Source of the DNA: Promethearchaeota archaeon
Lineage (GTDB): Archaea > Asgardarchaeota > Lokiarchaeia > Sigyniarchaeales > SOKP01
DNA: 63,998 nucleotides
Assembly: GCA_016840165.1 (NCBI GenBank)
Contig: JAEOSU010000031.1
Span: forward strand, 1 to 63,998
Reading direction: 5' to 3'
A program made the translations under genes and the position numbers. Below are positions 11,352 to 12,683 of the stretch, one piece after another; positions within the stretch are counted from its first letter, which is position 1; each line of letters begins with the position of its first letter. Below the pieces are notes generated by a model. It had not been told where the DNA came from. It saw nothing but the letters and a program-made list of their open reading frames with translations, and made no database searches.

Positions 11352-12683
11352 ATGGAAAAAGATTACGATTATTTCTTCAAAATTAGTGTTGTGGGTGATC
11401 CTGGGATCGGAAAGACGGCATTTATAGAGACATTTGCACCAGAAAGTTATTTTAAAAAAGAGTCGCTAAAAAAATCTTTTTTTCAAGAAAGGGTCGTTAA
11501 AAGAATTGGTGTAAATTTTTATGAAGAAACTATAGTTCTTAATACTGATTACGGTTCAAAAAAATGTAAAATTCGGATATGGGATACAGCAGGTCGAAAG
11601 TCTTTTGAAAGCATTCGACCACAGTTCTATAGAGGTTCTAAAGGGGCTATACTTTTTTTCGATTTAGCAAATAGAGATTCTTTTATAAACATTAATAAAT
11701 GGATCGTAGAAGTAAGAGAGGGTTTAATGCGTGACGAGAGAAGAAGGGAGAAGAAAGGAATGGGAAAGATTCCGATTCTTCTAGTCGGGAATAAAAGTGA
11801 TTTAGAGACTTTTAGAGTTTCACCAAAAGAAATAGATCAATTTATCCGTGATCATAATTTATATTATATAGAAACGTCCACTGTAACCAAAGAGGGAATA
11901 ATTGATTGTTTTTATTCAATTACCAGCTTAATGCTTGGAGTAGATATTCATAGTGAATACTTCTTATCAAATGATATAATCTATCGTCCAAATAGAAATC
12001 CTGAGTCCCATACATCTTCAACTCCTACATTATCAGCTAAGGATCTAAGAAATTTAAGTCAGAAAGCTATCTTTCAGAAATTAGATATACTTGAAAAAAA
12101 ACTAGATAGTTTTAAAACCCAAGAAATTGCGTTTTCAAAGCAAATGGAGTTAGAGGAAAGAAAATTAAAACTGAAAGAAAAAGAATTACAAATAAAAGAA
12201 ATACAATTAAATGAAAAACTTCAGGCTGAGGATTTGGGTGTATTAGATAAGAAAATTGTGGTATTTGTAAGCTATGCAACAAAAGATAAGGACTTGTTTA
12301 AAATTAAAGAATTCGCTGAAATTTTAACAACCTATGAAAAAGTCGATGACGTGCTTTATTGGGAAGAGGATCTGAAAGATAATATAGTAAAATATATGAG
12401 TGATAATCTCGATAAATGTGATATACTGCTTTTATTTTGCTCTCCGCACGCTTTGAAGTCAAAAGCGATCGAAAAGGAGTGGACATCGGCAGATATTATG
12501 AATAAACCTATAATACCTATCTTTATAAAATTAAATCACATCCCTCCACTTTTAAAGTCAAGGTTAGGTATAGAATTTGACACATTTGATCTACAGAAAA
12601 CAATTGATGAGGTTTATAATTTAATAATAAAAAAAATGGAAAACAGATTAATCGATATTAAAGATCTTAAAACTGATTTTTAG
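11352..12683 (+). CDS. Rab-like small GTPase - coiled coil - TIR domain fusion
   Basis: G1 GDPGIGKT, G3 WDTAG, G4 NKSD, G5 ETS; EK-rich coiled coil; TIR motifs VFVSYA, FCS and KEW. Confidence 0.88.
   Translation: MEKDYDYFFKISVVGDPGIGKTAFIETFAPESYFKKESLKKSFFQERVVKRIGVNFYEETIVLNTDYGSKKCKIRIWDTAGRKSFESIRPQFYRGSKGAILFFDLANRDSFININKWIVEVREGLMRDERRREKKGMGKIPILLVGNKSDLETFRVSPKEIDQFIRDHNLYYIETSTVTKEGIIDCFYSITSLMLGVDIHSEYFLSNDIIYRPNRNPESHTSSTPTLSAKDLRNLSQKAIFQKLDILEKKLDSFKTQEIAFSKQMELEERKLKLKEKELQIKEIQLNEKLQAEDLGVLDKKIVVFVSYATKDKDLFKIKEFAEILTTYEKVDDVLYWEEDLKDNIVKYMSDNLDKCDILLLFCSPHALKSKAIEKEWTSADIMNKPIIPIFIKLNHIPPLLKSRLGIEFDTFDLQKTIDEVYNLIIKKMENRLIDIKDLKTDF

Follow-up and report, generated by a model that had tools for sequence, protein, structure and literature searches.

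An Asgard archaeal protein joins a Rab-derived G domain with eroded switch residues to a predicted TIR effector

The window analysed here is the whole of a 63,998-nucleotide contig (JAEOSU010000031.1, contig C8 of the assembly) of a Promethearchaeota archaeon, an Asgard archaeon with a 3.6-Mb genome of ~30–35% G+C. The gene under study lies at 11352..12683 on the plus strand, in an intact frame of 443 codons followed by TAG and without an internal stop. Its features are as follows.

11352..12683, plus strand: full gene, encoding a Rab-like G domain, a linker, a helical stalk, a TIR domain and a conserved tail
11367..11936, plus strand: Rab-like G domain, residues 6–195 (from Pfam, PDB, Foldseek and the ratio of nonsynonymous to synonymous substitution rates, dN/dS)
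11394..11417, plus strand: G1/P-loop GDPGIGKT, residues 15–22, read from the codons and conforming to GxxxxGK[ST]
11454..11486, plus strand: insertion between helix 1 and switch I, approximately residues 35–45, with a low predicted local distance difference test score (pLDDT)
11499..11519, plus strand: switch I KRIGVNF, residues 50–56, from codons and HMMER alignments
11583..11597, plus strand: G3 DTAGR, residues 78–82, read from the codons
11721..11765, plus strand: basic insertion RDERRREKKGMGK, approximately residues 124–138, extending helix 3 before strand 5
11790..11801, plus strand: G4 NKSD, residues 147–150, read from the codons
11871..11879, plus strand: G5 ETS, residues 174–176, read from the codons
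11937..12035, plus strand: linker, residues 196–228
12036..12221, plus strand: predicted single long helix, residues 229–290
12255..12662, plus strand: TIR domain including its C-terminal helix, residues 302–437 (Pfam TIR_2, structural model, Foldseek and VIA-align)
12477..12479, plus strand: Glu376 (GAG), candidate catalytic glutamate within S370-x5-E376-W
12654..12680, plus strand: C-terminal tail IDIKDLKTDF, residues 435–443, low pLDDT

The two folded domains are recognised by Pfam as Ras (residues 10–192, E value 4.7e-33, 114.5 bits against a cut-off of 21.6) and TIR_2 (residues 304–410, E value 1.3e-12, 48.7 bits against a cut-off of 28). The Roc model also matches the G domain (E value 2.2e-19), and NCBIfam assigns only a generic small_GTP domain to the protein. 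AlphaFold2, supplied with a 91-row alignment, predicted a G domain, a helix at residues 229–290 and a TIR fold at residues 302–437 with a mean pLDDT of 84.6; the model is ill-defined at the loop 31–50, at residues 290–298 and over the last ten residues. Pfam and AlphaFold2 thus establish as real the succession of Rab-like G domain, long helix and TIR that a preliminary description, made from the letters alone, had proposed for this gene. Homologues carry the source labels Hermodarchaeota, Hodarchaeota or Promethearchaeota, all of which are Asgard archaea. We lean towards reading the gene as a single-chain sensor-effector of an Asgard-specific family that links a Rab-derived head to a TIR. Rfam returned no match above gathering thresholds anywhere in the window.

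The solved sequences nearest to the G domain are Rab2A, Rab1 and Rab11 (E values of ~1e-24), with a Thorarchaeota Rab also among the matches, and Foldseek aligned the modelled domain with Rab27, Rab1 and Ypt32 (E values of ~1e-13 to 1e-14; template modelling (TM) scores by target of 0.74–0.78). As the preliminary description stated, G1, G4 and G5 are intact, so that both base-recognition motifs (G4 and G5) are present; the context of G5 is ETST (residues 174–177) here and ETSA in Rabs. The last P-loop Thr (residue 22), which is E, Q or D in most members of the clade, is kept. The same description correctly read two substitutions. In switch I, HMMER alignments place Arg51 (AGA, 11502–11504) opposite the Thr of TIGV[DE]F, the position of Ras Thr35, so that the threonine responsible for Mg2+ binding and gamma-phosphate sensing is replaced by arginine. 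In G3, Arg82 (CGA, 11595–11597) occupies the position of the catalytic Ras Gln61, while the Asp and Gly of the motif are retained. The C-terminal prenylation cysteines of Rabs are absent, and the protein ends in ...DLKTDF after the stalk and TIR.

Two insertions interrupt the domain. The one noticed after G1 is borne out: between G1 and switch I, the protein has 11 residues more than the canonical sister paralogue and eight more than the nearest orthologue, and eight residues of the insertion at 11454..11486 are found in the 443-aa (amino acid) protein only. The second, basic insertion, which precedes G4 and had been overlooked, occurs in most TIR-bearing orthologues and is missing from the canonical sister. 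Contigs from an independent study (run X5) have no differences over 11352–11646, a segment that spans both Arg codons and the first insertion, and an assembly artefact is therefore excluded for these features.

Asgard small GTPases were compared within the genome. We called open reading frames (ORFs) genome-wide and read off the motif columns of the 81 Ras-type domain matches that a hidden Markov model (HMM) gave in 80 ORFs. The column of Thr35 holds T in 59 of the 81 matches and that of Gln61 holds Q in 57 and E in 14. Among the ~78 Ras-superfamily domains of the genome, an arginine at either position is found in the 443-aa protein only. The census also brought out 14 Ras-type paralogues with DF[AG]GE, that is, with Glu at the Gln61 position, and mostly with G[GS]KxD as G4; they make up a sizeable Asgard subfamily whose catalytic position is non-canonical.

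Thirteen full-length orthologous sequences, 50–86% identical in alignment, reveal how these positions vary across the family:

P-loop residue 22: T in five, E in seven, Q in one
Switch I residue 51: R in five, T in five, A, V and K in one each
DxxG residue 78: D in seven, N in six
Residue 82 (Gln61 position): R in two, Q in two, H in two, E in five, L and S in one each
NKxD residue 150: D in five, N in four, E in three, T in one

Residues G15, G20, K21, N147, K148, E174 and S176 are invariant or nearly so. The closest orthologue (P0002, 84% identical) has DTVGQ, with CAA where the 443-aa gene has CGA, which makes Arg82 the product of one recent A-to-G transition. The arginine at the Gln61 position is of minor importance and is not a conserved design feature.

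These alignments bear directly on what the preliminary description made of the substitutions, namely a slow or locked switch in which Gln-to-Arg and Thr-to-Arg fix the GTP state and nucleotide state drives oligomerisation of the TIR through a coiled coil. Both arginines are real and unique in the genome, GTP binding is plausible given that G1, G4 and G5 are intact, and a long helix does connect the G domain to the TIR. It is well established that Q61R impairs GTP hydrolysis in Ras; with both the Thr of switch I and the catalytic Gln gone, slow or absent hydrolysis may reasonably be expected, and this part of the proposal stands. The idea of Gln-to-Arg as a designed lock does not, since Arg82 is a single change from the Gln of P0002 and the position is otherwise H, E, S or L outside the few sequences with R or Q. 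Many orthologues, moreover, are without the P-loop Thr, the DxxG Asp or the NKxD Asp; with key residues varying or missing to this extent, the function of the family cannot depend on one GTP-locked state. The coiled coil is likewise only half upheld. The stalk is a predicted helix of 62 residues in which a hydrophobic a/d pattern is good (0.75) only at residues ~236–263, so that heptads are confined to its first half, whereas the remainder (ELEERKLKLKEKELQIKEIQLNEK) is charged and rich in E, K and R, as in single-alpha-helix spacers. A homodimer prediction for two copies of residues 225–443 with their own alignment scored 0.00, which is no evidence for or against oligomerisation. Taken together, we regard the GTP lock as distinctly unlikely.

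The opposite effect, in which one of the two arginines would supply a finger from within the domain, in the manner of G-alpha, MglA or dimerisation-activated GTPases, and speed up hydrolysis in a self-activating GTPase, can be judged on the same columns. Cis arginine fingers are known in G-alpha and MglA, and here one arginine (Arg51) lies in switch I and another (Arg82) adjoins the gamma-phosphate site. Neither is conserved beyond the closest five relatives, however; no conserved catalytic Gln or substitute is present to position the water, and Arg51 replaces the Mg-binding Thr itself instead of being additional to it. This makes an arginine finger extremely improbable.

In a tree of G domains, the family is nested in a larger, long-branched clade with the P-loop GIGK[T/E/D/Q], whose sister is a short-branched clade that includes a Rab-like protein encoded elsewhere in the genome:

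Contig C64, 44781–46505 (positions 782–2506 of the extracted locus L005), minus strand: canonical Rab-like paralogue, 574 aa

This protein is the closest canonical paralogue in the genome. It is 49% identical to residues 3–215, has all motifs intact, and continues into a long proline-rich, low-complexity tail and a C-terminal zinc ribbon. Proteins of 541–612 aa that match residues 1 to ~215–232 with 47–51% identity were found in 18 of 24 other genomes of the same genus that were searched. The sister clade is invariant for GDGGVGKT, KMTIGVDF, DTGGQ, NKSD and ETS. In the derived clade, by contrast, each of the five key side chains varies; the 443-aa protein retains more canonical residues (GKT, D78 and NKSD) than most of its relatives there. 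From tree and motifs, the G domain appears to be a fast-evolving offshoot of a conserved canonical Rab-like GTPase.

The motif erosion is clade-wide and has proceeded under purifying selection. For three orthologue pairs (Nei-Gojobori), dN/dS is ~0.21–0.23 in the G domain, 0.13–0.24 in the helix, 0.07–0.11 in the TIR and 0.17–0.20 over the entire gene, and reaches 0.4–1.0 in a short variable linker. A pseudogene or decaying domain is ruled out by the intact frame and a dN/dS of 0.17–0.22. Because the G domain is under purifying selection, its conserved function is that of a folded domain, most likely one that still holds nucleotide. This function requires neither Mg-dependent hydrolysis nor a gamma-phosphate-sensing switch I in the clade, and we infer from the retained motifs that the 443-aa protein probably binds guanine nucleotide with very slow turnover, if any.

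The TIR part, modelled alone with 73 relatives, reached a pLDDT of 88 and a predicted TM score (pTM) of 0.84. Its best Foldseek matches are the TIR-APAZ of SPARTA, AbTir, SARM1 and BtTir (E values of 2.6e-5 to 1e-4, TM scores of ~0.6–0.68), and VIA-align, a search independent of Foldseek, also placed TIR domains at the top (Z scores of 12–13). Profile and fold searches were needed for this assignment because the module is distant in sequence from solved TIRs: queried as a single sequence against PDB sequences, the TIR part had chance-level matches only. In a profile search, the module aligns with the N-terminal TIR of PDB entry 9m0n (E value 6.7e-7). The family motif S-x5-E-W falls on SEWVKKE of that protein and Glu376 on the canonical glutamate, an equivalence drawn from this profile alignment together with the motif. 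Measured against the pattern S-x-W-x3-E, carried by the helix after strand C in enzymatic TIRs, the family has the Glu of the catalytic position but Ala or Pro instead of the Trp. Glu376, F305, Y308, D312 and S370 are invariant in the 73 TIR modules. Given the fold matches to enzymatic TIRs and an invariant glutamate on the canonical site, we infer that the TIR is most likely of the enzymatic, NAD+-cleaving type (NAD+, nicotinamide adenine dinucleotide). The tail IDxKDLKTDF is predicted to be disordered and recurs in stalk-TIR proteins whose N-termini differ widely; it has the look of a short peptide for docking or autoregulation. One low-depth contig from an independent study has A for C at position 12508 (CCT to CAT), which changes the nearly invariant TIR residue Pro386 to His and could stem from a sequencing error or from strain variation.

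Both halves of the protein recur in other combinations. The stalk-TIR-tail module is found with 55–75% identity behind LRR, PCI, TPR, ubiquitin-like, Band7 and WD40 heads, and relatives of the TIR module that have the glutamate in the form VEKEW carry LRR-PCI, WD40, membrane or other heads. An exhaustive search yielded 199 representative clusters at E values below 1e-30; among the 150 listed, the majority match in the TIR part. Conversely, the G module and linker occur with other outputs, such as CN_hydrolase (P0043), metallophosphoesterase (P0080) and a kinase with CN_hydrolase (P0122). Six metagenomic proteins (P0047, P0053, P0063, P0124, P0024 and P0030) combine a near-identical G module and linker with an unannotated C-terminus of ~150 residues. 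The Atlas clusters closest to it consist of hypothetical proteins from Promethearchaeota, and one of these clusters has a 19% NPR2 annotation. The first part of the linker (GVDIHSEYFLS.DIIYRP) is conserved clade-wide regardless of the C-terminal domain, and its second part is variable. Since TIR-bearing and non-TIR proteins are interleaved in the G-domain tree, a nearly constant head has had its output domain swapped. We found further Ras-TIR fusions with canonical G domains as well (P0191, P0245, P0036, P0048 and P0051).

The full-length fusion is a rare accessory gene. It was detected in three of 400 genomes of the phylum, all from one genus (3 of 42, counting the source genome), and in none of the 24 same-genus genomes of a first draw. 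A conserved operon partner was sought and rejected, as the neighbours differ at the loci of P0002, P0011 and P0010. In the best comparison genome, the homologues of the two flanking genes fall on separate contigs; the other genomes searched lack them.

From this material we propose, with a probability of roughly 0.55 for the reading as a whole, that a Rab-derived, non-cycling and nucleotide-holding head senses or regulates, that the stalk transmits or spaces, and that assembly of the TIR leads to NAD+ cleavage in a setting of conflict, defence or stress. The clade of the head has kept the scaffold of the nucleotide pocket (P-loop glycines and Lys, NK and ETS) without conserving the Mg-binding or catalytic side chains, and the head would hold guanine nucleotide without timed cycling, in a regulatory or ligand-sensing role. 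The conserved linker and a helix of ~60 residues would join it to a TIR with a putative catalytic glutamate. Assembled with further copies, by analogy with SARM1, AbTir, SPARTA and ThsB, the TIR would cleave NAD+ and cause either its depletion or an ADP-ribose-derived signal. Since the gene is accessory, the most likely setting would be conflict and defence, or stress-induced dormancy or death.

Several points weigh against this reading. A conserved Glu in a predicted TIR does not prove catalysis, and TIR domains can also serve as non-enzymatic adaptors. The 443-aa protein has kept GKT, DxxG and NKSD and might hydrolyse GTP by an unconventional route. The gene is not in a recognisable defence island, its neighbours being peptidases and a PCI-like protein, and PADLOC-DB 2.0 (2023) gave no family at an E value of 1 or below, a result that excludes catalogued systems only. 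As a lead only, the C-terminus of the P0047 group is possibly longin or NPR2-like, which would make the alternative partner of the head regulatory rather than toxic and would fit ordinary cell signalling.

Some of these points converge on a housekeeping role in signalling or scaffolding, in which the TIR would be a homotypic, non-enzymatic adaptor that joins the seven other TIR proteins of the genome and the head would localise the protein or couple it to GTPase-regulatory partners. The genome has 74 Ras matches (~75 small GTPases) and eight TIR_2 proteins, three of which are encoded in the window, and some of the eight are conserved in the genus, for example a WD40-TIR protein of 1,221–1,232 aa. 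The TIR and its C-terminal tail are also very strongly conserved in paralogues with different heads, and the longin or NPR2-like lead for the sister G-module proteins points in the same direction. A fusion confined to three of 400 genomes would nevertheless be unusual for core signalling, and the invariance of the catalytic Glu and the best fold matches, which are to enzymatic TIRs, argue for an enzyme. We consider a housekeeping adaptor unlikely.

A more specific proposal overlaps the sensor-effector reading: the head would be an integrated decoy, a drifting duplicate of the canonical GTPase on contig C64 that baits viral or hostile factors aimed at the switch surface. If true, binding of such a factor would assemble the TIRs and trigger NAD+ cleavage, in an archaeal analogue of the integrated decoys of plant NLRs, and two eukaryote-like Asgard systems, small GTPases and TIR immunity, would be joined. 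In a related variant, the changes of the NKxD Asp to N, E, T or K would mean that the head has come to sense some other nucleotide than GTP. In its specific form, we rate the decoy as very unlikely.

Directly downstream of the fusion on the plus strand (12833–14056) is a gene that is not a conserved neighbour in the orthologue loci. Its product has a serine peptidase domain of the trypsin-like type and a transmembrane segment, and ends in a zinc-ribbon-like CxxC...CxxC motif. At 14916–18047 (plus strand) lies the gene for a largely helical protein of 1,043 aa with a weak PCI match (E value 4.5e-4, below the cut-off); PCI-like winged helices are also present in TIR paralogues of the same family. 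Upstream, on the minus strand (8073–11036), a protein of 987 aa contains both a Peptidase_M28 and an alpha/beta-hydrolase (S33-like) region and has a 57%-identical orthologue in one same-genus genome. Further along the window (51725–59926), two TIR_2 genes, encoding a 544-aa protein with TIR at residues 173–279 and a 1,221-aa multi-WD40 protein with a C-terminal TIR, flank a minus-strand gene for a 574-aa protein that ends in a NUDIX domain. In this genome, the TIR/NUDIX group may serve to receive TIR products.

TIR effectors regulated in cis by an NTPase are well known for STAND or NLR modules. The Rab-type head makes the protein a further case of this kind, a TIR effector that carries an NTPase-type regulator in cis. 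In 443 residues, compact enough for direct assay, the protein joins two families at the centre of thinking on eukaryogenesis, the expanded small GTPases and TIR-based immunity and signalling. The G domains of the clade form a natural series of stages in motif loss, next to which stands an invariant canonical sister, and this is useful for asking how a GTP switch becomes a non-cycling sensor. In the literature searched, we found no paper that combines Asgard archaea, small GTPases and TIR, and no description, in archaea or elsewhere, of a Rab-derived small-GTPase domain that drives a TIR. A survey of Asgard defence mentions TIR only within catalogued systems, the term is absent from a survey of Asgard GTPase architectures, and a paper on conflict systems mentions small GTPases once in passing, in connection with the distantly related AP-GTPase.

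With canonical Rabs (Rab1, Rab2, Rab11, Rab27 and the Thorarchaeota Rab of PDB entry 7EZB; Tran et al. 2024, PMC10933270), the G domain shares the fold and the motifs IGVxF, KIxIW and YRG, at 26–35% identity to solved Rabs in Foldseek alignments. It differs from them by Arg at two positions, those of the Thr of switch I and of the catalytic Gln, by two insertions, by the lack of prenylation cysteines and by its placement N-terminal to a stalk and TIR. Compared with the NAD+-cleaving TIR effectors (SPARTA TIR-APAZ, AbTir/BtTir, SARM1, Thoeris ThsB, TIR-SAVED and TIR-STING), the protein has the common TIR fold and Glu and a sensor or regulator in cis, and activation by assembly would be expected here too. 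The sensor, however, is a Rab-derived G domain and not Ago/APAZ, SAVED, STING, ARM-SAM or NB-ARC; the Trp of S-x-W-x3-E is Ala or Pro, there is no conserved partner gene, and NAD+ cleavage is predicted only. ROCO proteins (Roc-COR; LRRK2 and prokaryotic Roco) likewise use a Ras-like G domain within a multidomain chain to regulate an output domain in cis, with the difference that the output here is a TIR and not a kinase and that the G domain is Rab-derived. Membership in the ROCO family is ruled out, as the Pfam Roc model scores 70 bits but no COR family matches at an E value of 1 or below. Rnd, RhoH and the RGK family are eukaryotic pseudoGTPases that bind nucleotide without hydrolysing it. 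Like them, the 443-aa protein has lost the equivalents of Gln61 and/or Thr35 and kept the P-loop and base-recognition motifs; unlike them, it is archaeal, fused to a predicted enzyme effector, and part of a clade that drifts even at the Mg ligands and the base-specificity Asp.

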